The notes beneath the pieces are model-generated. The model ran no database searches, was not told the origin of the DNA, and worked only from the letters and a program-made list of their open reading frames with translations. Shown piece after piece: positions 1 through 22,883 of a DNA stretch of 64,000 nt. The stretch covers positions 124,001-188,000 of the forward strand of contig QPGO01000069.1 of NCBI GenBank assembly GCA_008632985.1, written 5' to 3'. This stretch comes from Psammoneis japonica (taxonomy: Eukaryota). Every line of letters starts with the position of its first letter. Position 1 is the first letter of the stretch. Both the position numbers and the translations under genes were made by a program.

Positions 1-427
1 TTTTCTTTGACAGCAAAATGTTCTCACAGAAATCAACATGGCCAGCTTGGCATCTGGTTTGACTTGTTCTCAACATTCTGCTGTTCACATTGCATTGGCA
101 GCAATGGTCATCAAAAGGCTGCATGCACTGTTGTCATCCATTGCCCCTGGACTTGCCTCACCTTCTTCAAGATTTGTGGTGCTGCTTTCATGAACAAAGC
201 TTTGAAGGATGACTCCATTTTCATGTGGCAACATGATTGGGATGAAACACCATGGACATTGTGTGCAACTTGCAAATTGCAGTTAATTTGCCTGAGCACC
301 ACTCCACTGACCTCCTTGCAAAATGCCTTTTCAAGCAGTTGTGCCTGATTGTCGTCAAGCAAATTGCCTGTCTGTCTCATTCCTCAGAAGGTCATGTCCC
401 TGAAAGACAAATCTCTCTGTGTGCAAA

Positions 428-662
428 AGTTGAGATGCAGTCTGCAGCTTGGTGGGGTGGACAAGACCTTGGAGGTTGGCAGCAATGCATGATGGCAACA
501 GAGCAAACAGACGCTTTGATGAAAGTTGTTGTCCAAAAGTTGTGATGAGAAGTTTGTTGTCATTTTGAATCAATTTGTGGGCTTGGCCAAACAAGTTGCT
601 GAAAAGAGCTGAGTCTGGGATGCAGTCGTGACATGCAACCACAATGACATTGAGTCATGACT
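428..662 (-). repeat. 3' LTR of copia element 1
   Basis: Aligns to 7337-7572; preceded on the minus strand by the purine tract GAGAGGGAG. Confidence 0.93.
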
Positions 663-3600
663 CTCCCTCTCAACCAAGAGAGCTCACCAGCCCACAACAG
701 CCTTTCCAGCTGTGTGGAACACATCAGTCCGCAGTCCCTTCGTGAACTGATTGGCTGGTTGCTCCAGAGTGCTGATGGGTTGGATGTTGATCTCCAATTG
801 CTCAACTTTGGTCCTAAACCAGTGGTGTGGGATGCCGATGTGTTTGGTTCATGGAGACAACTTGGGCATGAATGCAAACTTGAGGCATGCAGAGTTGTCT
901 TTGCACACAACGGACGCAGGTGGGACATTCTGCTCAACAGGCAAGTCATCGGTGCCTTGGTTTGCAAGCTCAAAAGCCTTGGAGTGAGTCATGATGGGGT
1001 TTTGGTGGTCAGACTTTCCAAACGCATGGTGGTTGAGCTCCTTGAGAACTTCATGAATGGGGATGAGATCACGCACAGCTTGAGAAAGTGCAACATGTTC
1101 CACTTCCACAGTCGACAATGCTGCAAGAGTCTGCAGCTTGGACACCCAGATGAGCGGGCAGCCGGCACAGCAAATGAGGCGTCCAGTCCTGGACTTGACA
1201 GAAACTGGGTCTTGACCATCTTCCACACCAAACAACCCCACGAAGTCAGAATTGACGCAACAATCAACTCAACAATCTTGTGCAGGCTTGAGAATGAGAC
1301 CTTCAGCAGCAGCAGCAGCAGCAGCTTTGAGGTGTCAGAGCATCTGCTTCACTGCAGCAGTGTGGAACACTCAGGGTGCAAACAAGAGTCAAGCTGCTTG
1401 ATGCATGGCATCCTTTGCTGCCAAGTGCATCAACATTCCAACAACTGAGCGACAATCGCAGGGTTCATCAAAAGGTGGGCCGTCCGTGTCAGCACCGAGA
1501 GGTGCAGGTAGAGCTGGAGCAGATGCTCCATTGCAATCCTCCATCTGTGCGGTGCGCAGGACCTTGTCAATCAGACCTGGTTGAGTGAGTGGAAATCGAC
1601 CCTTGGAGAGCTTTTCAATCTTGATGCTGAGAAAGTTGCCGACTTCTCCTTTGTCTCTTAGTTCAAATGTGCGGCGATGCTTGTTGTCAGAGACTCCTAA
1701 TTTGCGAATCTCCTCCTCCAGAGCTTCAGCTGACGCACCAGCGAAGACCGTGTCGTCGATGTGCACAACACACATCATGCCTTCCTTGACGCACAGGCAT
1801 GGGTCAATGGCTGAAGGCACCCATCCGTGCTCCATCAACCCGTCTCTCAACTTCTCATGGAAACCCTTGGGAGACTGTTTTAGGCCGTGTGGTCCTTTCA
1901 AAAGCTTGAGGACCATGTTGAGTCCCGACCTTGGTGCAAAACCCTTTGGCGGTGTTGTGTGAACTTCCTCGGCAATGTCAGCTTGACAGAAGGCTGTTGT
2001 GCAGTCTGCCTGACGTGCAGTCCATCCCTCTTTCAACACAGTGGTGAGCATCAGTCGGGTGCTGGACCATTGCACAACTGGCGCGTGGGTCTCAAAACAA
2101 TCCATGCCCTCTTTCCATGAATCACTGTGGATGCAGTGTCGGGCCTCACACTTGAGAGGCGTTCCATCTGGTGGTCTCTTGAGTTTGAGTGCCCATGTTC
2201 CTAGAAGCACATTCATCTGCGGCTGACACTCGACTGCTTTCCAGGCTCGATGATGCATGAGTGCGTTGACTTTCATCGCCTCAATCCATTCTTTGGCGTC
2301 CGGTCCTTTCAAAGCATCATGTGATGAAGGTGTGTCAGGGTCCTTGGTCTTCTTGCCAGCTGTGCAGGCTCGTGGATCGTCGACATTGATGGCACCACTG
2401 TCCAAATCCATCTCAAGAGTTGCCAGATGAGCTGGCTGAGCTTCGTGTCTGATCGGCATTGGTGTTTCCTTGATGGAACTGAGACAAACCTCATCCATGA
2501 ACTTGGCAGAGTTGAGCTGTCCTTTGGTTGATTGTGAAGACCATCGCTGCCCTGATGCACCCTCTGGATTCATTGCAGGAGGTGTCTCAACTGGGGGAGG
2601 AGCTGTTGGTTCTGTTGGCACTTTGGGTGGTGGAAGTTCGTCACTGTCTTGAAGTTCGGGTGGCTGAATTGGCGCAGATTCTGTAGAGTCCACAGGAGGT
2701 TGAGTCATAGATGGGGCTGGTGGCATTGGCTCTTGAGTTGCAGGCAAGACTTGATCAGAGGCATTGTCACAAGAAACGGGTGGATCTGGCACAGCAATCG
2801 ATGGAGTTGGCTGAAAGTTGCTGCAAATGCGGTGCTCTCTTGTCAGTTCTCGTTCTTTGTGTTGACGCTCTAGAGGAGTGAGCCACTCATCGTCAAGTGG
2901 GCCAGTTGATCCTTCTCCAGAGGGATGCAAGTCGATTGGTTGAGACACAGTTGCTCCCAGTGGTCAGGTGGATCCGTCTCCCTCTCAATTGATGGCACGG
3001 CAGTGAAGAGATTGTCAAAGACCACATGATGCTGAGGAGCAATGCTTCCAGTTTGGAGATTGAGGACGAGTGAAACCTCACTGGAATGGATGGCACTGAG
3101 TGCCATGAACAAAGCGCAATGAGTCCGGGGTTCCCAATGCGGCAGTTTCTTCCCGGAGGCAATCTTTGGGTCAAGCATGCATGCTGGACATCCCCATGTG
3201 TGAATGTCTTGAAGGCGATGTCGAGGCACTGTCGAACCAGTGAAAATGTCCGCTGGGCAACATCCCTTGGAATTTGGGGTGACATTGTAGATGTGCGTAG
3301 CATGAGAAACAGCCATGGGCCACAGGGAGCTGTCAATTCCTCCCTTCCAGTGGATCGATGCATGAAGCAACATCGCTCTTGCCATGTTGGAGATGCTTCG
3401 GACACCCCATTCTGCAGTGCCGTTCTGATGGTGGGCGTTGGTTCCACAAAACCGGAGACGTTGTTCATGTTCTTGCACATGTTGTGCAAAAGCGTTGGCC
3501 TTGAAAGCGCCACTGTTGGCAAGAAATTCTTGGACGATCACACCATGGTCCAAAGCATGTTTCTCAAACAAGCATGTTTCTCAAATGCTTGCTTCACTCA

Positions 3601-6600
3601 AATCGTCTCGACAGTGGAGAAACCCAGTTGATGCTCAACCTGGATGCATCCAGAGGCGTGATCTACAAAGACACAACCGCCCTTGAATTGCTTGGACGTG
3701 GCTTTGCCACATGAGTTGAAGGTTCGACCCAAGAGGTGTGACTCAAAATGATCAACGCTGACAGCCTGACCCGGTCGGAGATGGTCAGCTTGAAGGGCCC
3801 CGTTGCGTTCAGGGACTGTCATCTTGTGGGCAGAACCGAGAGAGCGTCCGTGACCCTTGGCATGCTCGCGTGCCTTGCATCTTGGGTGGTCACACTTCAC
3901 CGCCAACTTGAAACAATTCAACAGGGACAGAACTGCGTGGAGAAGGGCTTGCACACAACCAAAGTTGAGATGACCAAAGCGGGAGTGCATTTCCAACAAA
4001 AGCTTCTGTCCCGCCGTGAGGTTCTGATTCTCCTTGTTGAGGACCTGCAGATTCACTTGGGGAGCTGCAGATGCACCCTTGGTCATCGACGAAATGGGCA
4101 AGTGGCTGGATTGGTGGCTTGGCATGACCAACTTGCCCACTCTGTCAATGCACAAGCAGAAAGTGTGCTCATTGCCCCTCACATTTCCCACGTGCACCTT
4201 TCTCTTCATCAAAGAGGCGTTGAGGTGATGGCAGGCATTGACGGGCTCCTGGGATGCAGCACGCCATGGCATTCAACTGAATGGCAGCACCACTTGGCAT
4301 CGTGAACACCCACACAACCGGACTGGTGCCCTGAATGGTGAGACCCTTGGCTGTCCCATTGACATGGAGGGGTTTCTTGGGAACAGTCACAGGCCCAGCA
4401 AAATCGTCTTCATGTGGAGTGACAGCTGACATGGCACCAGCATCCATGACAACCGTGAGTGCCTTGTCCGACAGACCGACGAGCACCTGCGTGTCAGATG
4501 CAAGAAGGTCAGCTTGGGATTGTCCGGTGAGCAGCTGGATGGTGGATGCATTGCAGACGACGGGTCTAACACGTGCTGCTTCCAACAATGCACAAGGATC
4601 TTGAAAATGAGTGGCATCCATGATGTGATGAGGGACGCAAAGCTCGTCGAACCGGATGAAATCAGGACTGAACTCCTCAAGAGCATCAAAGAAGTGTTTC
4701 TGCTTGACAAGAGGCTCCAAGTTCTCGCAAGTGTCAAAGAAGGCTGATTCGTCCATCGCATCAGACCGTTCAGCAACTTCTGGGGTCTTCCAGCAGGCCA
4801 TGAGACGAGTGCTCAGTGCACGCGATGGATGGCGCGAGACAAACTCGGCAAGCACTTGCGTGCCCTTGATCTTGTTACATTCGAACAGTGATCTGGCATC
4901 TGACACTGTCCTGTCATCTGGCTCTTCCACAATGTGGCAGACTTGAGAGCTGGTGGTCAAAAATTGGCTTGACCGGCGCAAACTGCTGACCATGCCACAA
5001 CTGCTGTGGATGGGACCATCCAGGAGGCTGGAAACCCGTGCAAGGTTGGGAGTTTGTGCCGGCAGCATGGAGCTTGAGAGGGATGTGTGGGATCGGAGCA
5101 AAGCACAGATGCAGTGCCATTTCCCAAAACATGGCGGCGAGCCAAAACATGCAAAGCTTGGCTCATCCCAAGATTGAGCAACGTAAAGAGGGCTCTTCTG
5201 GTCATCACATGCATCTTCAAAGCATGCTTTGTGTTCAAGAATGAGGTCTAACTTGGTGTCGTCTGACAGCATGTCCGTCAAAGTTCCGGGAGTGTCAAAG
5301 AACTCATCTGGATGCTTGACAGAGTGCAGCTTCGAGGCCAGAAATAACTCAACAGCCGGTGGTTCGTTTTCAAATGCAGACAAAGCGTTGGAGCATTCGC
5401 AGAAGTTGTTGGCATCTTCGGGAGTGACAGTCTCAACCACGATGGGAGACACGATTGGAAGCATGACTGAGGTGAGCACAGGTGGGCTTGTTTTGCTGCA
5501 ATTCACCACAGTGCTAATGACCGCATCGCTCTCCCTTTGGCTGAAGAAGCTGGAGCAACAATGACTGCAGTGGCAACAGGGTCAGAAAAGAAATCTGGGT
5601 CGGCAGTGGCGTCTGCAGCCGTGCACCACATGCCCATGAAAACCAACTCGTTCGGGTCAGACTCGTCTCCCTCTGGTTCCTTGGCAGTCTGAGCTGGCGG
5701 ACCCACAGGCACACTGCCATCCAGATCAGAGACTTGAGACAAATTGCCCACTGGAGTTTCCTGGGGGGGGGGGGGGGGGGGCGCTTGAAGTCATCCTTGT
5801 GTTCCGTGGCAGAGTGACGTTGGTGGACACCCGGTTTGTCAGATCCCTTCACCGTGCACGGTGCACACCACTTCCATTCCTTGCCATTCTCATCCTTTTT
5901 CGTTTCTCTGTCAAACTCAGTGCGCCATGCAGCAACAGGACGTTGTTTCTTCTTAAAAGGATCATCAGCAGGTGGTTGATTTGGAGGTGGATCGTCGTGG
6001 GGCGGTTTGGGGTTGCATTTTGGGCACGTCTTCTTGGTGTGCCCTTCAAGACCACAACCAAAGCAGTGCTTCGTCTTCCCAGGGTTATCTGCAGTCGAAA
6101 GGTTGCTCTTGGGTAGCTTGGCAACCAATGCAGGCCACTCGCCGTCCTTCACGAGCTGGTTGTGCTGCTCTTGAATCCACGCGATGATGCCGACCGGTCC
6201 GAGCATGTTGTGGTTGCTGTCGGACTTGATGTCGGTGGGATTCTTGAGGCGACACTTGTGCTCCATGTTCTTAATGTCATCAAGCTTGTTGTGGACTCTC
6301 TGATTGAAGCATTCAGAGGACGTCTTGGACATCTTGTGGAGCAGCTTGGAGCTTGTGTTTGCCGGAAGCGCGCAGTCGGTCTGCATGATCTTCACAATTC
6401 AAAGTGCTTCGGCAGCAAAGTCTGTGCAATCCTTGCCGGGAAAGTCAACCAAACTGAGGTCTTCCAGCTGCTTCTTGGCCGTCTCAACATCCGTTAGAGC
6501 ACTGGCATTGCAAGTGTCCAGAGCCATCATGAATGGAACAGACCCGGGGCAGTCTTGGAAGTCCTTGAGATGGTTGAACTTGGTCTCGATTTTCTCGCGA

Positions 6601-7323
6601 AAGGCATTGGAGATTCTAGAGTGAACCAGGAGCTGAGAGAGCCCGACATCGTCGAGCTTGATCTCGTCGCACTCGGCATCATCGGCAGCTGCGTTTCTGG
6701 TCTGGTGCTCGTTCACGAGATCAGTCACAGTGAACTCATGTAGATGGTCGAAAATGTGCAGAACCTTGTCGTCGCTGTTCTTGACATGGCAGAAAGTCTG
6801 CTGGCCGTGGGCTTCAACTAGATCTCGAGTGGTCTTCATGAAGTGGTCCTTGTCAAGCTCGTTGATGGGACTGTTTGAAATCTCAAGTCGACCGTTGAAC
6901 TTGGAAGTCATTGCGGAAGCTTGTTGATCTTGGAGGGATCGTTCTGTCAAGTCGAGAGCCTTGGGATGACGGCACTGAGAGGCAAACCGGTGTGTTCATT
7001 GTGAGGTTTGAGCACAGGTGTCATCTAGTTTGGAACCACCAATGTAGACCCCGTGGGTTTGGTGAGTTCCACCACGTGGCGGCTTGGTTGGAGGCAGAGG
7101 AACGGTTGCGGTGGCGTTTGCGGCCATGGCATTGGCAAATGCCTTCACCAGGACATCCGAATCGATGGCAGTCATGACAGAGAGTGTGGTGTGGGAGGTT
7201 CTTGACAGCATGAAGACGAGAGAAGCAAGCGAGTCTCAGCCAGTTCCCGGGTTTGCTTCAAAATCAAAACGGAAAGCGTCCGTGATGATGACTCGGTCAG
7301 GAGCTCTCATCAATGTGCAAGCT

Positions 7324-7336
7324 TGGGCTCACAACC
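7324..7336 (-). other. Primer-binding site complementary to the anticodon arm of initiator tRNA-Met (half-tRNA priming), with one T>C change
   Basis: Plus strand reads TGGGCTCACAACC versus the tRNAiMet arm TGGGCTCATAACC; abuts the 5' LTR. Confidence 0.75.
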
Positions 7337-7572
7337 AATCAAGACACAGTCCTGCAGCTTGGCAGGGTGGATGAGACATCGGAGGTTGGCAGCAACACGC
7401 AATGGCAACAGAGTGAACAGACACTTTGACGAAAGTCATTGTTCAAAAGTTGTGATGAGAAGTTCATTGTCGTTTTGAATCGATTTGTGGGCTCGGCCAA
7501 ACAAATCGCTGAAAAGAGCTGAGTCTGGGATGCAGTCATGACATGCGACCAGAATGACGTTGAGTCATGACT
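7337..7572 (-). repeat. 5' LTR of copia element 1
   Basis: Aligns to 428-662; followed on the minus strand by the PBS. Confidence 0.93.
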
Positions 7573-8804
7573 GCAAAGCTCTGCTTGATTGAAGCTCCTT
7601 GTGACAAAAGCAAAGGATGTGTTGCAGGTGCTGATGGAGAGGAGGTTCTGAGAAAGATGATCTCCAACTCCACCTTGTCACCACCCCACTGGCACTGCTT
7701 CTGCTCTGGTGTGTGAGCCAGCACCAAAACTGCTCAGCACCAACATGTTGTGCCTGCCAAGACCTGCATCACTCTGCTCCTCCCCACCATGCAGAAGCCA
7801 CAAAGTTCTGTCTTTGACCCCAAATCAAAGCTCTGGATGGAGCACTGGACATTGTCCCTTCTAAAATGGCAGCACAAGTGTCTTGCCAAAAAGCTCCAGT
7901 GCACACAAAATGGCAGACAAGAAACAGGCTTACAAGCATCCAGCACAGAGCCTCTTTGGCATGGTTGCCAGCTTTGCTGGTGACACGTTTCCAATGGAAG
8001 TTCATTCCAGCCCAGCAGCTCCAGACATTTCTGACACAAGAGATGTCATGTGCCTGCCAACTTGATTGCATTGACAAGCATCCACAGCAGAGGCTCCTCA
8101 CACACACCAGAGACTTCTCAAGAGATCACTGCAGCTCCTCTGCTTGCACACCAGATGCAAGCCCAGCACCTCTGGCCCCTGCCAACATTGGTGCTCACCA
8201 TCATTTTGGCATTGCTTTTACAAGCACAGGCCCTGTGGTCACAACGGGCTTGACACCACAAGATGTTCAAGGACCCCCTTTGCAACCTTTCTGCAAAGCT
8301 CTGGCAGCTGGCTCCTTGGCAAACCTGTGCATGCATCCTGACACATGCTTCTTTGTTTTGACTTCCAAGCAAGGCATCAAGAAACTGAAAACACTCCTCT
8401 GAAAAGCTCTTGTTCTGCTTGTTCTCATCTGTCCAGCAGGAGACAGACCTGCATTGTCAGAGCACACAAAAGCCTGGCTTTTTTGCCTGTGCACAAAGCT
8501 TTGGCCCTGCTCTTGCCTGCAGCAATCAAACCACAGCTTTGCCTGCAGATTGCATTTTTTGATGGGGCAAAGCCCAACCCTGTCAGAAGCCATGAAAGCA
8601 CAGCTGGCACACACAGCCAGCAGTGGCAAGTGGTGGCCACAAGCTGTGCAGCTTCAACCCCAAGGAGGCAGCTTCTACAAAGGGCAGTGAGCCAAATCTG
8701 CTTCTGTGGTGCTGATGCTGGCAGACAGTGGTGGTGTGCCAAGAGATGGTGGTGTGGCCCTCAGGCTCTCTGGGTTGCACTGAAGCATGCGCCGCCAGTG
8801 CAAT

Positions 8805-9127
8805 TGTTGAACCAACAAGTCAATGTTGCCAAAAGGGAATCCTCTGAGGTTTCCTTTGCCACTTGTTGCACTTGTCTTGAAGCTCTGAACACACTTCAAT
8901 CTCTCAGATTGTGACAGGCACCTGCTGACACCACAAAGCAATTTGTGAGCCAGCAGATGATTCACTTCAAAGAGTGAGATGATGAAGGAAAAGGTTGGTG
9001 AGATTGGTGATGAGTGCATGCTCATTTCTCAGGTGTCACCAGGCAGATCCACCAGGTCAGCACCAAAAACATCTTTTCTTCAATGATCTTGATTCTGGGT
9101 TTTTAAATTTCCTGCTCATTCTAGACA
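8805..9127. repeat. Diverged LTR-like direct repeat, copy A (solo LTR or distal LTR of copia 2)
   Basis: Starts TGTTGAAC; shares blocks with 15074-15401 such as ggttggtgagattggtga and tgcatgctcatttctcaggtgtcaccag. Confidence 0.7.
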
Positions 9128-9699
9128 AGCCATGTGCACTGGTGCAAAAATCACACAAAATTTTTATGTAGAAAAAAAGCACAAAAATCAGGGTTTGGGT
9201 TGATTTTTTTCTCTTGCATCTGCCATGCTTCTTGGCTCCACCGACACCTCAAGGAATCAATTTCCCCTGAAACCATTGACACTTTACATGATGACTTTTA
9301 AATGAGCAACATAATTCTGTGAATGAGCACTTCAAAATTCCATTTCCCAAAATTCGATCAGCACTTCACTGCGGTCCCACCACGGCAAACATTTTCGAAT
9401 GATGGAATTTTGCTGAACAGCAGGACATTGTCGTGTCTGTCATCAAAAAGCAAGTGCACAAAGTGCCAACCATTGTGACTGAAATCAATTCCTTGAGGTC
9501 GTGACCCATTTTTTACAAAGTGTGGGAAAAGGATGACAAACAAGACATTCTACGTGAATTTTTTGTGTGAGTTTTGCACAAGAAATTGGCCCAAACCCAG
9601 ACTTTTGGGACTCCTGATGCTCGCAACAATGTTCAAAACCACTCATGTGATTCCCGCTTCTTGGGATCCTTGTCACCTTGTGGCTCACCAGTCTGCTCA

Positions 9700-12100
9700 G
9701 GACTCTTGGCATGCCTGTTTCAGGACTCACAGTGTCGTCCTGTAAATTGCAGATGCACAGATGCATGTGCTTGCCACCATTGCTGCAACCAATTGAATCA
9801 TTGAATGCATGCACAACTCCATGGACACATTGTCTGCAAAGCACTCCAAAAAGGCACAGCAATGCTTTTCTCTTTCACATCACTCTTGTTGTCTCTTTTA
9901 AGTTGGTCCATTGCCGAACTGTTTGCAATTTCTGGAGTCAAATGCTGGAGCTCCACATTGGCACACAGCGCCACTTCTCAACTCAGTGTGGTCATTGAGT
10001 CTCTTGACTGAAGAAGGCTGCTCAGCTCCTGGCATCATGTGCAACTCCTTTGGCATCCATCATGTGCCCATGTCATTCTTGCTTCTTCACATGATCAAGA
10101 TCCTGCAGCTTCATGAGGGGTCCACAGATCCCGCTCATGTGCTTGCGCCACATGCAGGAAAGCTGACGTTTGACTCATGACATGCAACATGGGTTGTCAA
10201 TGTCAGTCTTGTCCAGGCAGAGCCGCTGCTCATTTTTTGCTGCTCTGACCCACCATTTGGGTGTCAAGAACACTGACGCCATCAATTTGACCAAGATCAT
10301 GTCAATGCTGGTTGAATTCACACACCACAGAATTGCTTGCCTGATGCCCATCATTGCCTGAATGCCCTTTGTTCAAACAAGATGCCTGCTCCAGAAGATC
10401 TTCTGGATGGATTTGCTTCCCAAGGCCTCAAGAATGATGCTGTTGCAACTCTCCATCATGAGATCATTCAGGATCTTGTTGCACTCCAAGCCAAGATGAC
10501 CAAAGATCTTGAGTGTGTTGGACCACTCACAGACAAGGCTCCTCTCTTTGTGGCGGCTCCTCCAGGGTCTCAGGTTCATCTGAAGAATCTCGCCAATCTT
10601 CAGAAGACTGTGATCAAAGCAATCTTGGAGAAGGTCATGACATCACAACAACACATGTTGGGACTGTTTGTCTCCATTTTGTCCTTGTTTTCAATCTTGT
10701 GATTGTTGGGATGATGTGTCTGACACTCCTTTCCCAGGTTCCTCTTCTGCTCCAAGTTCTTCACCTCTGCTGGCTGCCACTGCAGGTGCTGCTCCTGAAG
10801 ACCTTGCCAAGGCCTTGGCTGCTCATTTGTCTGGTCCAAAACAGTTTGAGCAAGCCACAGCCAACACGTTGAAGAGTGTTCATCCTCCTGCTGAAGACTC
10901 AAGCATGGCTGTGCCTCCGGCTGGTGTTCTGTGCACTGCCAATCCCAAAGGACTTCTTTTAAGAAGGATGTGCCAGCTTGTGGCCATCAGGATGCTTCTC
11001 CTTCCGGTGACAGTCATGGATGCAAGAAAGCTGCTGTGCTTTCTGCTGTGTCATCTGTGACCCATCCTTTGCATTCTCACAGATTTGAGACATCCAAGTT
11101 GGGCCCAGTCACTGGGTCTGCTGCATGCAACACTGATGCTGCTGTTGCATCTCATGTTGCAGATGCACTCACTGTGGACACTTGGATGGACCCTGCAGAT
11201 GCCAATTCCTTGAGAATCAAGTCTGCTGTGTCTCGTCATGGAATCTGCGGGCAAGCCATCTACAGACATTGATGCTGGATCCCTTGCAATTCCTGCCAAA
11301 TTGTTGGCACTTCCTGCCAAAGTCTGCTCCTGTCTGCAGTGCTTGAGACCCATGAGTTTTTTGTTTCTTGCCAGTCCATTGTTCCACACAAAGATGGCCA
11401 CATTCACCCCAGTTGTGGACTGTCCTCTCTGTTGTCAAGGTTGCACCCAAGTTGCTTGCCACCTGTGCGCCACCATGTCTGTTGCTCATGGATGCCGCCA
11501 GTGCTTTGTTGGTTGTCAAGTTGACTCAAATTGGATTTTTGGATTGGCTGTCATTGATTTTGAACATGCAATGCTGTCATTCCTTCTCTTGTCCAATCAA
11601 GACCAATGGAATGTGTCACCTCTTTCCTTCACTGTCAGGACTGTTGTGGTGTTGAACAGCATTTGTCCTGGTGCTCCTGACCTGTGGACCTCATCCCCGA
11701 TGATGACCCTGCATTTTTTGATCAGGGGAGGGATTCCTGTGGCACAGAGGGGGAGCATGTCAGGTTGTTGAGAATTCAACCTTCCACCAAGACACCTTGC
11801 TTGACGATCATGTTTTGAACACCATGCAATGCTCACCTCTGACATGTCACTGTTCTTCCAATGATGAGTGATTTTACAATGCATTTTGTTTGTCCAATGT
11901 GTTTTTCAGGGGTGGCACAAAATGTGGCAGAAGCACTGGTTTGTCAGGTGGGCTGCCATTGCTTCATTTTCACCATCGCTTGCCATGGTGGATCTTAATT
12001 TTTGCCCACATCTCTTCCGATGAACTTTGGCAACAGCATGACTTGCCACAGAATGTCCCAATGCGGTCAATCGTTCATGGATGGATGAAATCATTCTTTG
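9700..12100 (+). mobile_element. Heavily decayed, unidentified protein-coding repeat (homologous to ~37.5-40.3 kb on the minus strand); boundaries approximate
   Basis: Shared DNA block ttgtccaatgtgtttttcagggg; peptide ASHVADALTVDTWMDP matches ASQVEEAFVVDTWVDS. Confidence 0.5.
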
Positions 12101-12127
12101 GTGCATGACTCAACATGTTCAAAAGAT

Positions 12128-15050
12128 TCATTGGGAGCTGTGCACCTTTGATGTTTTTGTCAAAGACCAATGCAATGGCTGACTGCAGTTTGCAAATGAA
12201 GTCTTGGCCATTTCTTTTGGTCCTTTTTCTTTGTTCTGACATTCTGGTCCTCTCTTTTCATTCAGATCGTCTCTTTCTTTCTTGATGAGCACTGCAGACA
12301 TCCAAGATGGGGAGTGCACTCCCTTGTGTCAGACAGACTGGCACACATGGACAGCATGGAGAGATCCGATGATCTCTCCTTTGCTCACTTTCTTTCTCAT
12401 CTAGCACACGATTGTCATCCTTCCTGGAAATCTGCCAGATTGTCCCGATGCCAGCAGTTCATGAGAAATCCCTTCCTTTTGCATCAACATGACAGTGTTC
12501 TTGATCATGGCCAGCTTGCACATCAACTTCTTGGGCATTGTTTTGCATGGCAGGTGATGTGTTGTGGCTCCAACTTGCTGTTTGATGGTCTGTCTGAATG
12601 CTCCACTTGACTTCCAGAACATGGTCCAGGGCATTTGCAGATGCAAGTTCTAGATTCATGCTGTCTGTGGCTTCCACCCCAGCATGTCCTTGAACTTGGG
12701 ATCACACTCAATGAAGAGCCAAAATCTTGAACAGGGCCATGTCATGCTGTCAGAGAATCACACCCAAGGCTTTGTAAATGCGCACATGTTTCTTGGACTT
12801 CAGCCTGACACAATGTTGGTGCTTGCTTGTCTTGTCTGTTGAGTGCAGCGTCTGAATGCCACATGCTTCCACAGTGTCAATGCAGAGGGTCATGCCTTCT
12901 CTCTGTTTCTTGCGGATCTCAGGTGGCGGAATTGCAGCGACATCATTCCTCTCACAGGAATGGTGCACCAACTTGGTCTTGCCCTTTGGCACATCTGTCA
13001 GTGGACCCCATGAGGCCACCATTCTGCCCATGACCTCAGGGATGATGGGTGGATTCTTCACCTGATTGGATCATAAAAATGGCTTGAAATCCCTCACACT
13101 GGGTGTTCCAGTCTCATGGCATGGTCTGAGTGCTTCCTTGGCAATTGCTGCTGCCCTTCTTGCTCAGTGCAGAGCCTTTCACACTCTGCTTCACAGCTGG
13201 GAAAACAGTTCCCAATGCACTCCCGTGCTTCTTGTTGGTCTTCTTGACAACCTTCTTCTCCTTTGACAGCATGCTCAAATGCAACTCATTTTCATGGAGT
13301 TCTTTTGTGTGGTCAAGGAACTGCTGGCTTGGAGCAAATGTGTGCAGTCTGATGTTGTCAACTTTGAACACCAAAACCTGTTTGCCAGTTTTCTCATCTG
13401 ATGAACAGAGCTTGTCTCCCAATCTGTCATTGCGCATGATGCAGCACTTGTTTTTCACATCCTTGAGACTCAGGATGTCAGCTGTTGCATTCTGTGATCC
13501 ACGTTTCATGTTGCCCCATCCTGACACAGCACAGTCTCTGTCCAGAGAATCCAATCCCATGTTGGTGGATGGATCAACCTCCTTGATCCTTGCCAGCTGC
13601 ACATCATGCACCATTCTCTGCCTTGCTGCCATGCTGAGGGTGCAGCCATTGTCAAGGTTGACCTCATCTGACTTGATGCCAAGCAAAAAGCCAACACATC
13701 AGCTTGGCTCAAACTTGTCCCTGGCTTGTCTTTGCCCTGCTTGTCTGCTTGGAACCCATGCCAAGCAATGTTTCTCCTGCTCAGGCCTCTTGCTGGAGCT
13801 TGCTGATCAACTTGATCTGTGCGTGTTGATGCTGGCATTGTTGCTGCTCACTGATGAGTTGCCTTCTTTTCTTGTCTGCGTGTGACCCTGGTGTCCCCTG
13901 GTGTCTGGCTTCCCACCAGAGTTCTTGCACCAGCCCTTCTGCAGGATCTCATCCTTGCACTTGCAGTCTGGACACTGGTGGTTTGGCTTGCCACAACAGT
14001 GGCCCACTGCAGCACCCTGTTAGTTCCTCTGGGCATGACTTTGGCATTGTGGGTTCTTGTTCTTGTAGTTGCCTTTGTTTCTGTTCCTGTCCTTGGGACA
14101 TTTGTTGTGCTTTTTGTTTCATCAGTTGCATGGATCATCATCCTTTGGATTGTTCTGTGACACACCCATTGCCTTCTGGAGTGACTTTGGATGCAAATCT
14201 GTTCCCAGGCTGCAGTGTCTCACAAGGCTCTTCTTGAGACTCTTGCAGAAGCTGTCATCACTGTTCTTCATGGACAGGAATGTGGCCCATGTCTCAAATG
14301 CTGTGTCTTCCAGCACTTTCTGTTTTGCTTTTTTCTCTGCCACTCTGTGCTGGCACAGTCCTTGCACTCTTTGGCATTCTTGATTGATCCATCCAGCATC
14401 TTGCTGCCAAGACCATCACTTGCACAGCGTCTTGTTGACTCTCAAATCTTGACAGGCAGTCATGCGGTGACTTGTCTTTGAGTTGTTTCATTTCCAGCAT
14501 GTGCTTCAGAGACTTGGCAAGTGTGTGGAATGAATGTCAACCTCTCATCAAGTCAAACGTGATCTCCTGACAATTGACAGCTGGGGTTGGCTTGCAGCAC
14601 TCTTGGTTTCATCAGCTTGGTTCAGCAATCATCTGGGATCAATGCAAGTGCAGTTGTTTTGTTCTCTTCTCCAGCTTCTCTGTGGGACTTTCTCATTGCA
14701 GTTGCATGGCCAGGCCTTTTGTTCATGCTTGCATTGTTTTTTCTTGTGCCCTTTGGATTGATGTGCTCCAACAACTGGCGTTGTCTGAATCTGGGATCAC
14801 GCAGATGGCATCTGCAATGTCAGTTTCTTGGAGAAATCTTTGACGAAGGACAAAACTTCATTTTTGGCTTGGAGCTCCTCTGGGAGTCAGTGTCACAGAA
14901 AAACATCTGGCCTCTGCCACCCCTGCCTTGGTTGTGTGCTTGGCTCTCAGCGCCCATTCTCTGGCGCCTCCCTCTCTGCCACTCACAATGCAGGTCTTCT
15001 GTCTTGAATGATCAAATGGAGGTGCGTGTCTCATGCACCAAGAAACACAG
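12128..15050 (-). mobile_element. Degenerate, truncated copia (CoDi-like) element 2: gag, protease and integrase remnants
   Basis: Zinc knuckle HCCGKPNHQCPDC (~13960-14000), protease-like NLDNGCTLS, integrase remnants TLCIDT..GIQTLH and DHVLEVKWSIQT (cf. EHVPEVERSIRT). Confidence 0.75.
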
Positions 15051-15073
15051 TGCTTGTGACTTTTTGGAGTGAA

Positions 15074-15401
15074 TGTTGAACTGACAAGTCAACTTCACCA
15101 AAAGGGAGTCCTGTGAGGTTTTCTGTGCTGCTCATTGCACTTGTCCTGGCTGCACTTGTCGTGAAGCTTTGAATGAACTTCGATCTCATGATGCAACAGG
15201 TGCCTGCTGACAGCACAGTGCAATTTGTGCAAACCAGATGATTCACTCCAAAGAGTGAGATGAAAGAAGGTTGGTGAGATTGGTGACAAATGCATGCTCA
15301 TTTCTCAGGTGTCACCAGATCCACCACGTCAGCACATCCAAAACATCTTCTCTTGAACAATCTTGATTCTGGGCTCTTAAATTTCTCGCTCATTCTGGAT
15401 G
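15074..15401. repeat. LTR-like direct repeat, copy B (probable 5' LTR of copia 2)
   Basis: Homologous to 8805-9127; lies just upstream of the minus-strand gag remnant. Confidence 0.7.
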
Positions 15402-16205
15402 CTTCAACAGCCATGGCCAGCTGCAAAATCAGTGCTGATTAAGAAGGGGGCAATGGCAAAGAGCAACACAATGCTGCACTGGCAATTTCATGTTGGCAAG
15501 CACCTCACCCCTCTCCAGACACAAGCTTTTGCTTCTGAGAGGCCAAGAACCCTTCACTCCAGCTCTTGCCAAAACAAATGGCAATGCCATGAGTTTCGAC
15601 ACATTCTGGAGAAATTTCAACAATGTCTCCATGTCCAGAGGAATGTTGCAGGAAGTGAGCCAAGAAGCAATCCTTTGTGGTGAGTTCACTCTCAGGCAGG
15701 GAAAGTTGGATCCTGCCAATGGAAGGGCCTGCACAGGCAAAGATTTCATGGCAAATTGTGTGCAAAAGAATGACCAGCACCAATGGACAGGATCAATTAA
15801 AAGATCATTGGTCAACAACCAATGGACTGGTTTTGTGGGCTGATGAAGAAAAAGAAGTTTCACCGCATCAGGACATTGAGAGATCAACATGGACTGGTCA
15901 AGTGAGAAAATGTTTGTGTCCCGATCTGTGAGCGAAGAGCAACGTACAAACGAAAAGTTCCCTCAGAAAACAACTGATTACAGTTTTACAACTGACTGTA
16001 TCTGCCCAAGTTTTTGACGGCATCCGACGCACAGAGGCTGACAATGGCGGGAGCTTCCAACCATGCCAATGCCTTTCATGTCGTGGAAGCTGGACCCAGC
16101 TGAGCGCATCATTATTCTGGTGATCTCCCTACTGAAGGAACGAATTGCACACCAAAATTCTGATTGCATAGGACTATACCTCTCAAAGAAGTCTCCCAGT
16201 TCATT

Positions 16206-16952
16206 TTACCAACTAATTGGCTCTCCATTTCGAAAGAACCCGCCGGTAGGACCAGACTTGGGCAAGGTTGCAGCAAACACAACGGATTCCCCACCACGTT
16301 CAATGGGACCACCGCCACTCCCACCCATATCTGTGGCGATCCATCCCGGACATACGGCATTGACTCGAATACTTGGTAGATCGGCTGCGAGTTTGAGAGT
16401 AAGGGCATTCAAAGCGGCCTTGGAAACGCCGTATGCTGGTGTTGAGCCGCTCATACCGCCTTGCATTGCACCAGCGCCAGAACTGACATTGACAATACGT
16501 GGGTTTTCCGACGCTTCAAGAAGAGACAAAAATGCCATGGAACATCGCCACGGACCGTACAAATTCGTTTCCATGGTCTCTTTTACATTATCAAGATCTG
16601 CCGCACTCGTTCTTTGCCAGTCATCGTAATTGATACCCGCGTTATTGATCAGAACGTCCAACACCCCGAACGACTCCTTGATTTTTGACACGGCTGCATC
16701 CACCGATGCTTGATCCGTGACATCTAGTTGAATTGGTTGAATCTTCTCATCCAAGCCCAAGTCGCTGACGGCTTGCTGACCATTTTCCAGTGAACGCGAT
16801 CCCAGCAACACTTGATATCCTTTCAGCGCCAATTGACGACAAACTTCTTTTCCTATACCTCGATTGGCACCCTTCACGAGAGCAACTTGACTCATACTCA
16901 TGGTGTAGTTGCAAAGAAGTAGCAGTAGGAATGCAGCAATGACTTTGGCCAT
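16206..16952 (-). CDS. Short-chain dehydrogenase/reductase (carbonyl reductase-like)
   Basis: GANRGIG NAD(P) motif, LINNAG, NVSS, catalytic YGVSK, VNAVCPGWIATDMGG; intronless; start at 16952 or a downstream Met. Confidence 0.93.
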   Translation of the reverse strand: MAKVIAAFLLLLLCNYTMSMSQVALVKGANRGIGKEVCRQLALKGYQVLLGSRSLENGQQAVSDLGLDEKIQPIQLDVTDQASVDAAVSKIKESFGVLDVLINNAGINYDDWQRTSAADLDNVKETMETNLYGPWRCSMAFLSLLEASENPRIVNVSSGAGAMQGGMSGSTPAYGVSKAALNALTLKLAADLPSIRVNAVCPGWIATDMGGSGGGPIERGGESVVFAATLPKSGPTGGFFRNGEPISW

Positions 16953-17309
16953 GCTGCGAGTTTCGCTGTGATGCAATAATGAATCGCCTCTCACAGTAAG
17001 TCGCGAATAGAATAAGCGCGAAAAATTCCATGTTGCCAGTTTCGCGCGCACAACTGAAATAATGAAGCGTTATTCTGGTCCATTTATGACTGGTCATGAC
17101 TCGTGTGGTATGTTCTCTACGTGGGCCGCTACGCGGCCCACTTGCATTTCTGACTCACTGGAATAACGATTCTCTCCTAGTTGTGTACGCCGTGACACCG
17201 TAGGTAGAAAATAAGTAGGATGAGTACCGAACCGGAAACGGCCATCGGATCCGGAAAACACATCACAACAGTAGCACCATGAGCTCGTGGGGGGTTTTGG
17301 GAGGTGCTA

Positions 17310-18060
17310 TCTCAATGAATTTTCAACCGATTTTCTCACTTCTTGTTTTGTTTGACACGTCAATTTGACAGGTAATGTGAGAGTCTTGGTTTTACTCTTC
17401 GAAATTGGACTTATTACCGACAAAATATTTTTTGAAAGTTCACCCAATTGGATTTCTAGTTGATGGAGTTTGTCAACTGATGCAGCGGGCTTTCGTCGTC
17501 ATTTTTTGGTCAATCTTCCCGATTCTTGTTTCTGAACTCGTATATATTATGTGTGTGAGGTGATGAGAGTGTGAGAATTGCGAAACAAGCCATTCTAAGC
17601 TAAAGATGTGGACTTTGAACGAATGCAAAATTGATTCATTTGATTCAGATTGGACAACTGTAAGTGCTGCGTAGCAGTTTCTGTCTCATTTTTCAACCGA
17701 TTTTCTCACTTCTTGTTTTGTTTCGAATATTGATTCAACAAGGAATGTGAGATGCTTGGTTTTATTTTGTATCATTGGACTTATCATCGGAAAAACAGTT
17801 TTTGAGAGATCGCTCAAGTTTGAGTCGGCGGGGTGCGATACACGCCAAGTCGGAGGCTCCGGTGCTGTCTCATTTTTCAACCGATTTTCTCACTTCTTGT
17901 TTTGTTTCGAATATCAATTCAACAAAGAATATGAGATGCTTAGTTTTATTTTGTATTGTTGGACTTATCACCGGAAAAACAGTTTTTGAAAGATCGCTCA
18001 AGTTTGAGTCGGCGGCAAACGATGCAGGCCAAGTCGGAGGCTCCTGTGCCGTCGCTGTCT
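17310..18060. repeat. ~184-bp tandem repeat, about 4 units (2 near-identical, 2 diverged), downstream of the Crypton ORF
   Basis: tttcaaccgattttctcacttcttgttttgttt recurs at 17321, 17691 and 17875, with a degenerate unit near 17505. Confidence 0.9.
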
Positions 18061-18079
18061 CCCCCATGCCACTTGCCAT

Positions 18080-20593
18080 TCATATGTAGTTCTTATCCTT
18101 CAACACCTTGACAAAATTAGAAAGTTTTTGGTTTGCTTCAGCCTTGTAAATTGTGTTCATTTCTTCAATGATGACACTCGCCGTCTTCTGCGGGTTTGCG
18201 CTTCGTAGCGAGTCTATCGCTTTCACAATGCGCTTGACTCGAGAAAAGCACTGTGAGTCGGCTTTATCAAAGTCCTTCCGCACATGCATTTGTGGTCGCT
18301 TTCCATCTTTTCCAGCCCTCCAACCACAGGCTTGTCCTTGAACGTGCTCAAGCCATGCCACTGGTCGTAAATCGACTGAACGCTAGAGTGGTTTCGACGC
18401 GGTGGTTTGTAGCCAAATCCCTCTGGAGCTGCTGTTGTGATGCCAGTATCTGCAGTGTCAGTGCTGCTGCCGGGCCCCTCTTCCACCCTGGAGCTCCCTC
18501 CTGCACCAACTTGAGCGCTGCCGCCAGCTCTGGAGAGTCCTCTGCCATGAAGCAAGCTGCTGGCAGCCAGTGTGAGCTGTCCTGCTGCTGCCGACCGGGC
18601 TCCTTCATTGGCACGGTACTCGCCAACAAAGCCATCAAGCTTGCTCTCCAGACGCTTCTGACCAGCTTCCAACTGCTGCTGCCCGTGACCAAAGAGATGA
18701 GAGTCGCTCATGAACTCCTGGGAGGACAGCAGAGAGGCTTTTGTCTGCCGGAGAAGAGGCGCTTTGCAGGCTCTCCCGCATGGTTTGACGAAACTCCAGA
18801 AACAGTGGATGCTGAAACACCTCCATCTGAAAAAGCGGGTGCCTTGATCGCTCGGGATGGAGCTCTAGAATGGCTGCTGCATTGTGAAGAATCACTCGTC
18901 GAAGCTCCTTCAACAGCACCAAGAAGTTGATGGCGGTGTGATGAGCGGCATTGTTTTGCGCCATGGAAGTCACCACAGCATTGTGAGACTCTTCAACAAA
19001 TGGAAATATGGTCGCCTGGAGCTCTTCTGGCGGCTCAACCACTGTTCTGGGATTGAAATGCATGCCGTTGGCTTTGTGAAACCCACCTTTGGCTTGGATG
19101 GATGGCATGGGCAATTTTGTAGAGTAGAACTTCTCTTGTGTCTTTGGGTCCCAGTTTCCAAGGGTTCGAGTCTCTTCGCTGGGACGCTCTAGAAACTCCA
19201 TTTCAACAGCTCCGAGGACTCTCCCAAAATGGACGTAGTGGTTCATGGGAATGCCCACCTCCTTTCCAATTTTCTTCATGGCATCACCATAAGTCGCGTC
19301 AGAGATGTTCACGGTGTTGTCAGTGGTTCTGGAGTCCACCAGAAGCTTGATGTCGAACCACGACTTGTTGTCGGTAAAGTCGGGCGGCTGGTCCATTTCC
19401 CCAGTCAGGTAGAATCGATAGAGCAACATGAATCCAAGGCTTCCCACAGAGCAAAGGAGGGGATTCAGGTGCCTCATGCTGCGGCCATACAATTTCACAC
19501 CTTTGTTTGTCTTTCCCGTAGCTATCTGCATGATGAGAAGCGTCAAAGGGTGAGGGTCGGAATCTTTCTGTATTTTTATGCACAAGAGATCGGACAGCTC
19601 TGCTTTGTAGACTGACTCCCCACGTAGAATCCCTGAGAAAGTCTGTAAGAAGCAGTAACGGTTTCTTAAGCCACAGAAAGCCTGACGAGAGGTGTTGTAT
19701 CCACTCTTCCACAAGCACGATTCGATCGAGTCCAGCTCTTGAATGGCTGCATATGGTGCAAAATCGTGGTCAATCTTTTCTTTGTAATTTTTTTTGTTGA
19801 TTCTTTCCTTGCGATTGCTGACCATTTTCATCAGCCTTTCTGTGTCTTCCGTCCAAATAAATTCCCATGGAAGCGAGTTTGCATTCTGAGCGACCTGCCG
19901 CGTGTGAATGTGTTTGATAGCGTATTTGTACTGTGCCATCAAACTGTGGCCGACCGGGTTTTGCGGCTCCGGTATTTCACTCCTTGTTCCTTGAAGATAC
20001 TCTTGAAATATTTTTTGGTAGGTGTGGATAACTGTACGGAAATTGGAGGTATCAAAATTGCCGCCCGTCGGTTCCGATTCGCCACGCTTTCGTTTCCCAC
20101 CTTGTTTCTTCCTTTCTCGGAATGCCTGATAGAACATAAATTCGTGCACTTTTTCCTTTGTAACAAGGTATATGGTATCATCACCAACAGCGGCTTTTGA
20201 CTCACAATACGCCCTGAATTCATCCTTCTTTGGGTCGAACGCGAGACTGTTGTTGTCGACCGTATTCTGATCTGCGATGTTCAGTACTGTTTCAGACATC
20301 ATTCGCTGGTTGACACCAGAAAGCTGCTGTGGATGCACCAGAGGCCCCATAAGTTGTTGCTCAGTCCTCAGGCGGCTAGCATTATGCCTGGCACGCATGC
20401 CTCTGGCCCGTTGCTGGTTGGCAAGCGTCGTCATAGTCGTTCCGGGACCGCTCCGTGTGTGCATTCTGAAAGCAATCGCGAGAAAAATTAAAAAGGAAGG
20501 TGGCCACAGAAAAAAGTGCACACGAGAGCAATTTGAACCGGAGGCCTCTTGCAGCTTCCAGTATCGCTTTTCGTGAGGTTGAAAATGTCTCAT
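18080..20593 (-). mobile_element. Crypton-type DNA transposon: Ndc10-like tyrosine recombinase plus frameshifted GCR1_C-like C-terminal domain
   Basis: Catalytic set R (ILRGES), K (GKTN), HxxR (HFGR), W (LGNW), Y (FYSTKLP). C-terminal SVQSIYDQWHG..GGLEKME and FSRVKRIVKAI lie in shifted frames (18223-18711, 18080-18361). Confidence 0.85.
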
Positions 20594-20860
20594 GCTGACG
20601 TTTTTTATAATTGATCATGACGTCCCACAACCATAATAACGACAATTATTGCATGACCGAACCCCAAAATAATAAAATTATTATGCACATCAGTCATGAC
20701 TGAGAGCCTGACACGTCATCAAAATGTCGCCTCAGTCTGACTGGGGTCAACATAATGTGGCGCAAAAATTGAATCTGCGTTGATGCTACTTTGAATAGCA
20801 CCCGCTTCAGTAAGAAACTCTTGTGACCTCAATTGACACGAAGACGACAGTCACTATCTT

Positions 20861-22105
20861 ATGAGTAGCCCTACTAGTCATTCCGATAAAGTCCCGGCAC
20901 GAATTGTAGAGCACTGTAGACGCCTCTTGCGAAACGATGCCCTTCTCGTCAAACTCAACTTGTCTCATGTTCCCGTGTTGGACGCCGGTGGCATTGAACT
21001 GGGAAATGCCATTGGACACAACTCTGTTTTACGAGAATTGGTATTGAATGACAATATATTGTGCCGTGAGGGATCGGTAGCAATCTTTGAGGGCCTGGCT
21101 CGCAACGCGAGTCTTCAGAGCATGTTTTGGGGTGGTAACATGATGGGACGGGACGGTGCCGCTGCCTTGGCAAGGGCGCTTCGAATCAACGAGTCATTAC
21201 AAGTACTTTGGCTTGTCGAAGAAGACATGGGGGAGGGAGCCGTCACTCTATTTCAGGGTGGTCTCCGTCACAATATGGGTCTAGATACGCTTCACATAAT
21301 GGGCAATCTCGACTTGCAACGCGACTGCTGGGCAGCGTTGGGAGAAGCGCTCAAATACAATACGACATTGCGGGTACTTGATTTGGGTAAGAGTGACATT
21401 GGTGATGATGATGTGGTTGGAGTTGCCAATGGATTGAGAGTAAATGTTGGTTTGAAAATTCTGGATTTGCGACGAAACAACATTTCGGGTCGTGGTGGGG
21501 TAGCGCTGGGGTCCATGCTGGCTGCCAATCGGACCCTCGAACAACTCAACTTGTACGCCAACGAAGTTGACAATGACGGTGCCTCGGCTATTGGACAAGG
21601 ACTTCTGCGAAACAATTCGTTAGTCAAACTCGACCTTACGCTCAACCACATTGGTGACGAGGGTGCGGTGGCTTTTGCGGAATGTTTGAGCAACAACGCG
21701 CTAAAGGAGCTGTATCTCACAAGAAACCAAATTGGTGACAAAGGTGCGATAGCTATTGCTCAAGGACTTGTACATTGTACGAGCCTGAGGGAACTGTACC
21801 TGTCGAATAACTGCATTGCAACTGAGGGTATGAAGGCAATTTTGGAGGTGCTACAGCGCAAAAACAAGACTGTCCAATCACTCTTTGTGCACAACCAGGA
21901 GCGATCCACGGACGAGATGGCAAGTCTTGCCAAAGAAATCGACTTTTGTACGAGACTCAACGAGGCCGGCTTTCCATTCATTGGAGACGCGGCCATTCCT
22001 TTTTCGCTGTGGCCGCTCATTTTGGAACGCGCCAGTATCCAACCGGACGTCCTTTTTCGTTTTCTTTCGGCCAAACCCGAATTGATGAAGCGGCGCCAAA
22101 CATGA
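20861..22105 (+). CDS. RNI-like/NLRC3-like leucine-rich repeat protein
   Basis: ~28-aa repeats LxxLxLxxNxIGDxGAxA; C-terminal LWPLILER..PDVLFRFL typical of the expanded diatom family. Confidence 0.9.
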   Translation: MSSPTSHSDKVPARIVEHCRRLLRNDALLVKLNLSHVPVLDAGGIELGNAIGHNSVLRELVLNDNILCREGSVAIFEGLARNASLQSMFWGGNMMGRDGAAALARALRINESLQVLWLVEEDMGEGAVTLFQGGLRHNMGLDTLHIMGNLDLQRDCWAALGEALKYNTTLRVLDLGKSDIGDDDVVGVANGLRVNVGLKILDLRRNNISGRGGVALGSMLAANRTLEQLNLYANEVDNDGASAIGQGLLRNNSLVKLDLTLNHIGDEGAVAFAECLSNNALKELYLTRNQIGDKGAIAIAQGLVHCTSLRELYLSNNCIATEGMKAILEVLQRKNKTVQSLFVHNQERSTDEMASLAKEIDFCTRLNEAGFPFIGDAAIPFSLWPLILERASIQPDVLFRFLSAKPELMKRRQT

Positions 22106-22883
22106 ATTCCTACCAAGCCCACGCGAATATCCCAGTCTCACTAGAAAAGTTAAAAGCATCCTTACCAGCACAGGTTTCTTTTCTAGTTGAAGCGTTGGGA
22201 ATCGGCGCAAAGCCCCTACTTTCAAAGACGCTATTGTACGATAAACGGAGGAAACATCATGATTCAAGTAAACATTGTTTTTTGGAAATTTGATGGAATT
22301 GACAAGTTGGTGGCCCCAACCCGAGGTATCAGAGGAGCACTGCCATCCGCCCCCTTCTCTTTAGCTTCTCACGTTTAACGGATCATGACCTTACTCGACA
22401 GAGCTCTGGCTTCAATCCTGGAAAAAGCCCTTGTGGTACGGATTGCCATTTTGCAGAACGAAGCAAATCTTTCCCCTCATTTAACCGACCCGTTTCATAG
22501 GTTTGCGTACTCTCTAGCTAGGGCCAGTCATCATGACAGAACCGTTAAGTCAAGTTTTCGTCTCTTGACGAATCATCTGGTTTTCATGACATATTGTCTG
22601 GGGAGGATGGAAATACTCAGGTAGCCCTTCCTTGTCTCTTTCTTTGATCTAATAGTTAGGTGGCAACAAGGGAGTACACGTCTTCTTCGTCACCATGTTT
22701 TGGACTCCTACGCTCTACTTTGAGCTGCTATCTGGCTCTTGGCATTCATCACTCATACATCGTCCGCTTGTGCCCATCCCAATCTGGAACTGCTTTCTAT
22801 AGGAACGGTTCTGTATGGGTAGAACATCTATGGCATGTAACAAATGTCTAGAAGTAGCATACATACTGCAAACCAGTTTTCAT

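Follow-up and report, generated by a model that had tools for sequence, protein, structure and literature searches.

TA-to-TG/CA conversion alongside CpG decay in the repeat blocks of a diatom contig

Results

The window analysed here is a stretch of 64,000 nucleotides from Psammoneis japonica (assembly GCA_008632985.1, contig QPGO01000069.1, positions 124,001 to 188,000; all coordinates below count from the first letter of the window), which we treat, from its sequence, as diatom nuclear DNA. A central block of compact genes on both strands, from 16.2 to 36.2 kb, is flanked by repeats that make up the remainder of the 64 kb. Near the left end, positions 428-7572 are a single insertion of a Ty1/Copia long terminal repeat (LTR) retrotransposon on the minus strand, here named Copia1. 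We show that in the repeats of this window the dinucleotide TA has been converted to TG or CA by a process that is specific to TA, acts symmetrically on the two strands, is confined to repeat blocks and is faster than CpG decay.

Copia1 is bounded by two identical copies of a 5-bp target-site duplication, GCAAA, at 423-427 and 7573-7577. Because this duplication is intact on both sides, the element represents one insertion, and the differences between its LTRs postdate the separation of the two LTRs. The LTR that is 3' in element orientation (428-662, minus strand) contains no TA and 2 CG, and the 5' LTR (7337-7572, minus strand) contains no TA and 9 CG. The internal region between them (663-7336, minus strand) carries broken open reading frames (ORFs), with an observed-to-expected ratio (o/e) of ~0.06 for TA and ~0.5 for CG. 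A reverse transcriptase domain, RVT_2, was detected in the ORF at 1389-2948 (E 8.8e-26). Searching with the polyprotein returned 170 longer homologues, of which those named come from a diatom and plants, and the tblastn matches of 60 diatom Copia polyproteins were spread over ~800-7000 on the minus strand.

A first-pass annotation of this DNA had counted nine sites that read TG in one LTR and CA in the other, about 11 sites that read CG versus TG/CA and about six differences of other kinds, and had noted that TA is missing from both LTRs. When 428-662 was globally aligned with 7337-7572, these counts were reproduced exactly. The 236 columns comprise 201 identities, 34 mismatches and one gap. 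The mismatches fall into nine TG/CA swaps (431/7340, 436/7345, 453/7363, 462/7372, 486/7396, 490/7400, 504/7414, 527/7437 and 555/7465), 11 CG-versus-TG/CA sites, at which CG was kept twice by the left LTR and nine times by the right one, and five other substitutions (two AG/AA, one CC/TC and two transversions), which together with the gap account for the remaining differences. TA is indeed absent from both LTRs, and no CG is shared between them. Adjacent double differences are TG/CA in 9 of 10 cases, which is beyond chance. Swaps 486 and 490 are less certainly aligned, as both fall within a brief stretch of alternating pyrimidines and purines (486-502 / 7396-7412) that shows small indels among family copies.

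The two LTRs differ at 26% of the 118 columns in pyrimidine-purine (YR) dinucleotides versus 2.6% of the 117 columns outside them. Raw divergence is 14.5%, and the Kimura two-parameter (K2P) distance is 0.169 over all columns versus 0.026 over non-YR columns. The annotation's warning that LTR dating would overestimate the age of the element was thus justified, the inflation being ~6.5-fold by K2P for all versus non-YR columns. The deamination of methylated CpG, an ordinary process, would explain the 11 CG-versus-TG/CA sites. The annotation itself had cautioned that a swap may descend from TA or from CG, and this is the crux: the ancestry of the nine swaps is not decided by the LTR pair alone.

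It is the coding sequence, and not the LTRs, that settles the matter: TA-to-TG/CA conversion in the repeats of the window is real. Homologous polyproteins were placed by tblastn, and codons with at least 70% agreement among homologues were taken as conserved. In Copia1, a single conserved Tyr out of 32 is kept, with 14 replaced by His and 10 by Cys. The second Copia element of the window, Copia3 (57619-63104, minus strand, with an RVT_2 domain; TA o/e 0.06-0.09, CG o/e 0.80-0.86), has homologues that are 58-68% identical and keeps 3 of 47 conserved Tyr, with 13 His and 25 Cys. A partly TA-depleted LINE-like non-LTR retrotransposon (45900-53800, minus strand; TA o/e 0.17-0.19, CG o/e 0.7-0.9) keeps none of 6, of which 2 became His and 4 Cys. 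In contrast, 11 environmental Copia loci used as controls keep 92 of 111 conserved Tyr and show His or Cys at 6 of 111 (Fisher p = 3e-17 for Copia1 and 2e-20 for Copia3). Residues of Copia1 other than Tyr are retained at ~80-95%, and the Tyr content of the homologues themselves is normal. The process affects both strands, Cys and His standing at 35:27 in the two Copia elements (p = 0.37), and strand-run clustering of the Cys and His outcomes was looked for and not found. The occurrence of both outcomes at conserved Tyr makes the editing of a single-stranded molecule unlikely, in agreement with the first-pass annotation, which had argued against editing of RNA or cDNA.

Conserved Arg codons were examined in the same elements. 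Copia1 keeps 23 of 48, with 11 now TGN and 11 CAN; among its CGN codons 22 of 38 now read TGN or CAN, and six conserved Arg codons have become TGA stops. Copia3 keeps 51 of 64 (49 CGN, 7 TGY and 4 CAY), and the LINE-like element keeps 14 of 17. Losses therefore amount to 94% of Tyr versus 18% of CGN Arg (11/60) in Copia3, and to 97% of Tyr versus 58% of CGN Arg in Copia1; the TA process runs independently of CpG decay and outpaces it. Conserved I, M, T, N and K codons, all of which begin with A, provided a second independent test. The retained A's are preceded by T in 0 of 56 cases in Copia1 and in 2 of 148 in Copia3, and the A-to-G changes are preceded by T in 11 of 14 and 8 of 14 cases, respectively, showing that the A-to-G change is specific to an A that follows T (on the other strand, T-to-C before A).

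TA conversion cannot make in-frame stops: TAY becomes TGY or CAY, and TAA and TAG stay stops or become sense codons. This is why Copia3, although dead, retains open frames of 799 and 1098 aa. TA-free repeats of this kind would lead gene callers to predict long spurious proteins. Tyr makes up 0.2-0.4% of the Copia3 frames versus 2-4% in genes. An LTR pair belonging to Copia3 (CG-rich and TA-free) was sought across the 64-kb window and none was found. In the LINE-like element, an Exo_endo_phos (APE) domain lies in the ORF at 50200-51972, and a weak RVT_1 match, below the Pfam cut-off, in the ORF at 48494-49744.

The dinucleotide composition of the window follows the same division between genes and repeats. 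To the left of the genes, the block 1-15800 is poor in TA and CG, with TpA/ApT of 0.06 and (CpA+TpG)/(ApC+GpT) of 1.89, and ends at most ~200 bp from the first gene. The gene block (16200-36200) serves as an internal control, with o/e of 0.5-0.6 for TA, ~1.0 for CG and ~1.2 for TG and CA, including its non-ORF DNA, which taken separately retains TA at 0.59 and CG at 0.98. A saturated repeat block follows at 36400-46000 (TA o/e 0.04-0.12, CG 0.05-0.37) and contains a 190-bp tandem array at 41318-42420; this array and the inter-element DNA are as free of TA as the elements. Across the repeat blocks, o/e values are 0.03-0.19 for TA, 0.05-0.9 for CG and 1.5-2.0 for TG and CA. TA and CG are the sole depleted dinucleotides among the 16, and GC content is 0.50-0.57, with no AT enrichment. 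Site bookkeeping in the saturated blocks gave a gain of 1556 TG+CA versus losses of 649 TA and 938 CG, so that gains and losses are in balance. The borders between repeat and gene blocks are sharp to ~200 bp in the dinucleotide profiles. The TA process is confined to repeat blocks.

Survival of TA depends on its neighbours. For each context the reference was its NTAN frequency over the 408 kb of 66 normal Copia loci, with reverse complements pooled. Survival was 0 for ATAT, 0.005 for ATAC and for ATAG, 0.027 for ATAA, 0.04 for GTAC, 0.09 for GTAA, 0.15 for CTAC, 0.17 for CTAG, 0.20 for CTAA and 0.24 for TTAA. Grouped by class, RTAY survived at 0.011, mixed contexts at 0.065 and YTAR at 0.206, which is near multiplicative per half-site. 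The same order of context survival was observed in the partly converted LINE-like element.

The loss of TA is not general to diatom Copia elements, since 66 of 80 environmental Copia loci have a TA o/e of at least 0.55. One of them, L041, shows strong CpG decay (CG 0.11) and yet a TA o/e of 0.50. Hypermutated LTR pairs were sought in these 80 loci; the two contigs lowest in TA are short ones that have kept their Tyr. These two, L024 and L020, have TA o/e of 0.14-0.18 and CG of 0.10, encode Arg by AGR and keep 6 of 8 and 6 of 9 conserved Tyr, respectively. They look composition-adapted to a pressure against TA and CG rather than like hypermutated corpses.

Further features of the window were examined. 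A second, older LTR element lies at 8805-15416, with LTRs at 8805-9146 and 15074-15416. Between these two LTRs there are 8 TG/CA swaps, 2 sites with CG versus TG/CA, a single TA/TG site and a single shared TA, together with 23 transversions and 33 gap columns; the pair is as ambiguous as that of Copia1 on TA versus CG origin. The sole TA common to both of these LTRs (9104 and 15378) lies in TTTAAATT, in the best-surviving TTAA context. Between TA-free repeat blocks, a 2-kb island at 53900-55900 has near-normal TA (TpA/ApT 0.46) and CG, and shows how sharply the TA process is bounded; its ORF at 53974-55533 (plus strand, 520 aa, Tyr 3.1%) has no Pfam match. Within the non-coding DNA of the gene block, tandem copies of ~180 bp at 17303-18053 are 75-91% identical and keep normal TA, indicating that a local repeat is insufficient to trigger TA loss.

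The products of the gene block include a short-chain dehydrogenase, a PALP enzyme, a leucine-rich repeat protein, a RelA/SpoT homologue and a protein with an NDC10_II domain. Every named relative of the RelA/SpoT ORF is a diatom protein, with a top identity of 57%. The NDC10_II domain (E 1.3e-32) lies in a 659-aa ORF at 18635-20614 (minus strand) that has 2.9% Tyr and normal TA. This domain is often found in Crypton-like or other tyrosine-recombinase elements. If the ORF is a mobile element, it is one that the TA process spares.

Discussion

We consider it likely that two processes have acted on the repeat blocks, namely CpG deamination and a TpA-specific A:T-to-G:C hypermutation that is far quicker, and that the LTRs of Copia1 diverged after insertion, almost wholly through transitions at the two self-complementary YR dinucleotides. 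The results show the second process to change TA into TG or CA on either strand and in repeat blocks only, with RTAY sites preferred and YTAR sites largely spared. The first-pass annotation had placed the mutations in genomic DNA after insertion. The part of this claim that stands firmly is that the differences postdate the separation of the LTRs, as the GCAAA duplication indicates. As to the substrate, we infer that the TA process probably acts after integration, on chromosomal double-stranded DNA in silenced repeat domains. Such an action is favoured by the occurrence of both outcomes, and by the fact that the LINE-like element, the tandem array and inter-element DNA are affected too. If the process acts in situ after integration, about a third to half of the nine swaps are expected to be TA-derived. 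A strongly directional flank model, with T-A-Y mutated far more than T-A-R, was also tried as a way to tell TA from CG ancestry at each swap from its flanks. It initially suggested that no more than ~2 of the nine swaps could be TA-derived, and this estimate was dropped because Tyr-codon outcomes were 21/32 where the model expects 83% (p = 0.016). Tallies made flank by flank against the frequencies in genes were set aside as too noisy at the single-context level.

The agent could be a DNA-acting adenine deaminase of the TadA/ADAT type, or an activity that oxidises the thymine of TpA to a base mispairing with G. The natural substrate of TadA/ADAT is an A preceded by U, and an oxidised thymine, 5-formyluracil, mispairs with G. 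We lean slightly towards viewing the whole as a lineage-level genome defence that mirrors fungal repeat-induced point mutation (RIP) with the opposite chemistry, that is, an active TpA-to-TpG/CpA mutation targeted to repeats or heterochromatin by a putative deaminase or thymine oxidiser. A defence of this kind would destroy every Tyr codon and TATA-type signals and would spare long ORFs.

The alternative that deserves most attention attributes all swaps to methyl-CpG deamination on opposite strands and places the loss of TA before integration, either in double-stranded cDNA or in a TA-free source that was mobilised in trans. We judge it rather unlikely, although a series of observations supports it and weighs against TA conversion after insertion. 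A CpG-only model, in which the two LTRs decay separately, agrees with the counts of the pair (1.0 shared CG predicted versus 0 found, P = 0.37; 95% range of both-decayed sites 11-29). CpG deamination could indeed account for every one of the nine swaps; under both of the models that were tried, it accounts for half of them or more. Any dependence of the direction of TA conversion on its flank is weak and non-significant (21/11 versus 13/15, p = 0.19). Copia3, with 94% of its TA converted, is nearly free of CpG decay, which looks burst-like, and the three proven cases are all retroelements. Other copies of the element point the same way. Contig pieces of run X1 were compared with positions 300-7700 at 80% likeness, giving 1495 pieces, and the best-supported 40 of 982 variable places were considered, none of which was usable at the nine swap sites; runs X2 and X3 yielded no pieces, which does not count as evidence that copies are absent there. 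Among these 40, other copies have CG where the window has TG/CA in ~15 places, the reverse pattern occurs in 3 and swaps in 3; at one further place the window has TA versus CA in 17 contigs. No reliable TA was seen in other copies at a TG/CA of the window, the case at 7396 being a single contig at the edge of its alignment. The other copies, ~20-100 copy-equivalents, are also TA-free, and this would agree with either a source copy that lacked TA or a conversion that preceded integration. Over 7.4 kb there are 740 transition-variable places, for which CpG-derived sites alone could suffice, and this count is a hint of little variation between copies at TA-derived sites.

Several lines of evidence stand against such a loss before integration. 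The CpG-only model needs ~30 ancestral CpG in 235 bp, or 12.8 per 100 bp without TA, a composition unlike that of 17 among 19 related Copia LTR fragments; the 19 have a mean per 100 bp of ~4.6 CG and 6.0 TA and a maximum of 10.7 CG. The sums of CG and TA in the same fragments run from ~9 to 13.8 per 100 bp, and the required 12.8 falls within them. If the LTR once had TA and lost it before insertion, the implied ancestral TG+CA would be 6-8.5 per 100 bp, whereas none of the 19 fragments has less than 10.6. The fragments that serve as this prior are incomplete LTRs of other species, and two of the 19 are CG-rich and TA-poor, which again tells against our reading; a pattern scan of metagenome contigs for the Copia1 LTR gave 0 matches. 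The 35:27 symmetry excludes an editing that reached only the sense RNA or only the minus-strand cDNA, and an element in which 24 out of 32 conserved Tyr are replaced could not be autonomous. Moreover, the integration of LINE-like elements involves no free double-stranded intermediate, and yet the one in the window is converted; the tandem array, amplified as DNA, and the inter-element DNA are equally TA-free.

Three other explanations were weighed against post-insertion hypermutation at CpG and TpA, and each appears very improbable. The poverty in TA and CG might be the adapted composition of active elements, through selection or codon usage, as L024 and L020 would illustrate, with their conserved Tyr largely kept and their Arg written as AGR. 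For the copies in the window this is refuted by the replacement of conserved Tyr by Cys or His in 24/32, 38/47 and 6/6 cases and by the six Arg codons of Copia1 that are now stops. An artefact of sequencing or assembly, with systematic miscalls at modified bases in repeats, is equally hard to credit. A strand-random TG/CA outcome does resemble consensus errors at a symmetrically modified site, but the changes are codon-coherent and the block edges coincide with genes. In addition, 158 contig pieces of run X1 match at 99% or more, some of them exactly at a word depth of ~46, which requires accurate reads; contigs built from exact k-mers reproduce the window at this depth, for example in a 358-nt record with 0 differences. 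Run X1 is probably from the same sample as the assembly, so that it does not lend independent support. Finally, the two LTRs might descend from different copies brought together by recombination, their divergence being older than the locus. The high raw divergence of 14.5% would suit such an origin, which we hold to be scarcely plausible given the identical GCAAA on both sides and a divergence of just 2.6% outside YR dinucleotides.

Known mutational systems share some features with what is seen here and differ in others. Diatom transposable elements are CpG-methylated, according to the available text of Hoguin et al. (2023, PMC9998398). Methyl-CpG decay resembles the present pattern in that CG goes to TG or CA on either strand, in repeats only, with an excess of TG/CA and an inflated LTR divergence; unlike the process described here, it cannot remove TA, and it does not match the loss of 94% of TA versus 18% of CG in Copia3 or a GC content near 50%. 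Fungal RIP is likewise a transition hypermutation with a dinucleotide context that is limited to repeats, affects both strands, destroys the genes of transposons and stops sharply at the borders of its domains. Its chemistry is the opposite, however: RIP turns CpA/TpG into TpA, makes DNA more AT-rich and creates new stops, whereas here TpA becomes CpA/TpG and no new in-frame stops arise. Consistent with this, TpA/ApT is 0.06-0.09 (at least 0.89 under RIP), (CpA+TpG)/(ApC+GpT) is 1.5-2.0 and GC is 0.50-0.57.

Hyperediting of retroelement or viral RNA by ADAR also reads as A-to-G and prefers a 5' U or T neighbour. It differs in acting on the sense strand only, where we find 35 TGY versus 27 CAY at conserved Tyr, and a 3' pyrimidine is preferred here; to our knowledge, ADARs are confined to animals. 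APOBEC3, too, inactivates LTR elements by a hypermutation that the host drives, and the changes later become fixed in the genome. It acts, however, by C-to-U on minus-strand cDNA and so leaves a one-strand G-to-A pattern made before integration; outside CpG no such bias is seen, TA and CG alone being depleted and non-YR LTR columns differing by 2.6%. In enterobacteria, a bias of very-short-patch repair depletes CTAG, through T-to-C over-repair linked to cytosine methylation. Here, in contrast, CTAG survives comparatively well (0.17), and depletion is strongest at ATAT and ATAC. In dinoflagellate DNA, 5-hydroxymethyluracil is enriched on repeats and transposable elements (Marinov et al. 2024, PMC11071213). 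Older work had described TA and TC as its preferred contexts, and Marinov et al. did not recover the TA preference. This base belongs to a different lineage, and the same text reports no mutational consequence of it, so that it offers a lead to mechanism only.

Full-text literature searches, which did not take in any genome paper of the species, brought up no account of repeats in which TA is mutated to TG or CA. The TA process is apparently undescribed, and the CpG part is ordinary. If confirmed, the TA process would join fungal RIP as another point mutation directed at repeats, from beyond the fungi and with the base change reversed, and a natural A:T-to-G:C activity on double-stranded DNA at a defined motif would be of interest for base editing. 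For diatom genomics it would supply a signature of silenced DNA, namely TA-free and Tyr-free sequence with long dead ORFs. The available text of PMC9998398 groups diatom DNMT4 with the fungal RIP factor RID and gives the function of DNMT4 as unknown; our results raise the question whether DNMT4/RID-like or other enzymes of diatoms mark repeats for mutation.

The same signature as in the Copia elements of the window was observed in a public protein, P0191, a 919-aa Copia product from a 47-kb contig with 0.8% Tyr. At its 11 conserved Tyr positions there are 6 Cys, 3 His and 1 Tyr kept, and 11 of 16 conserved Arg are kept.

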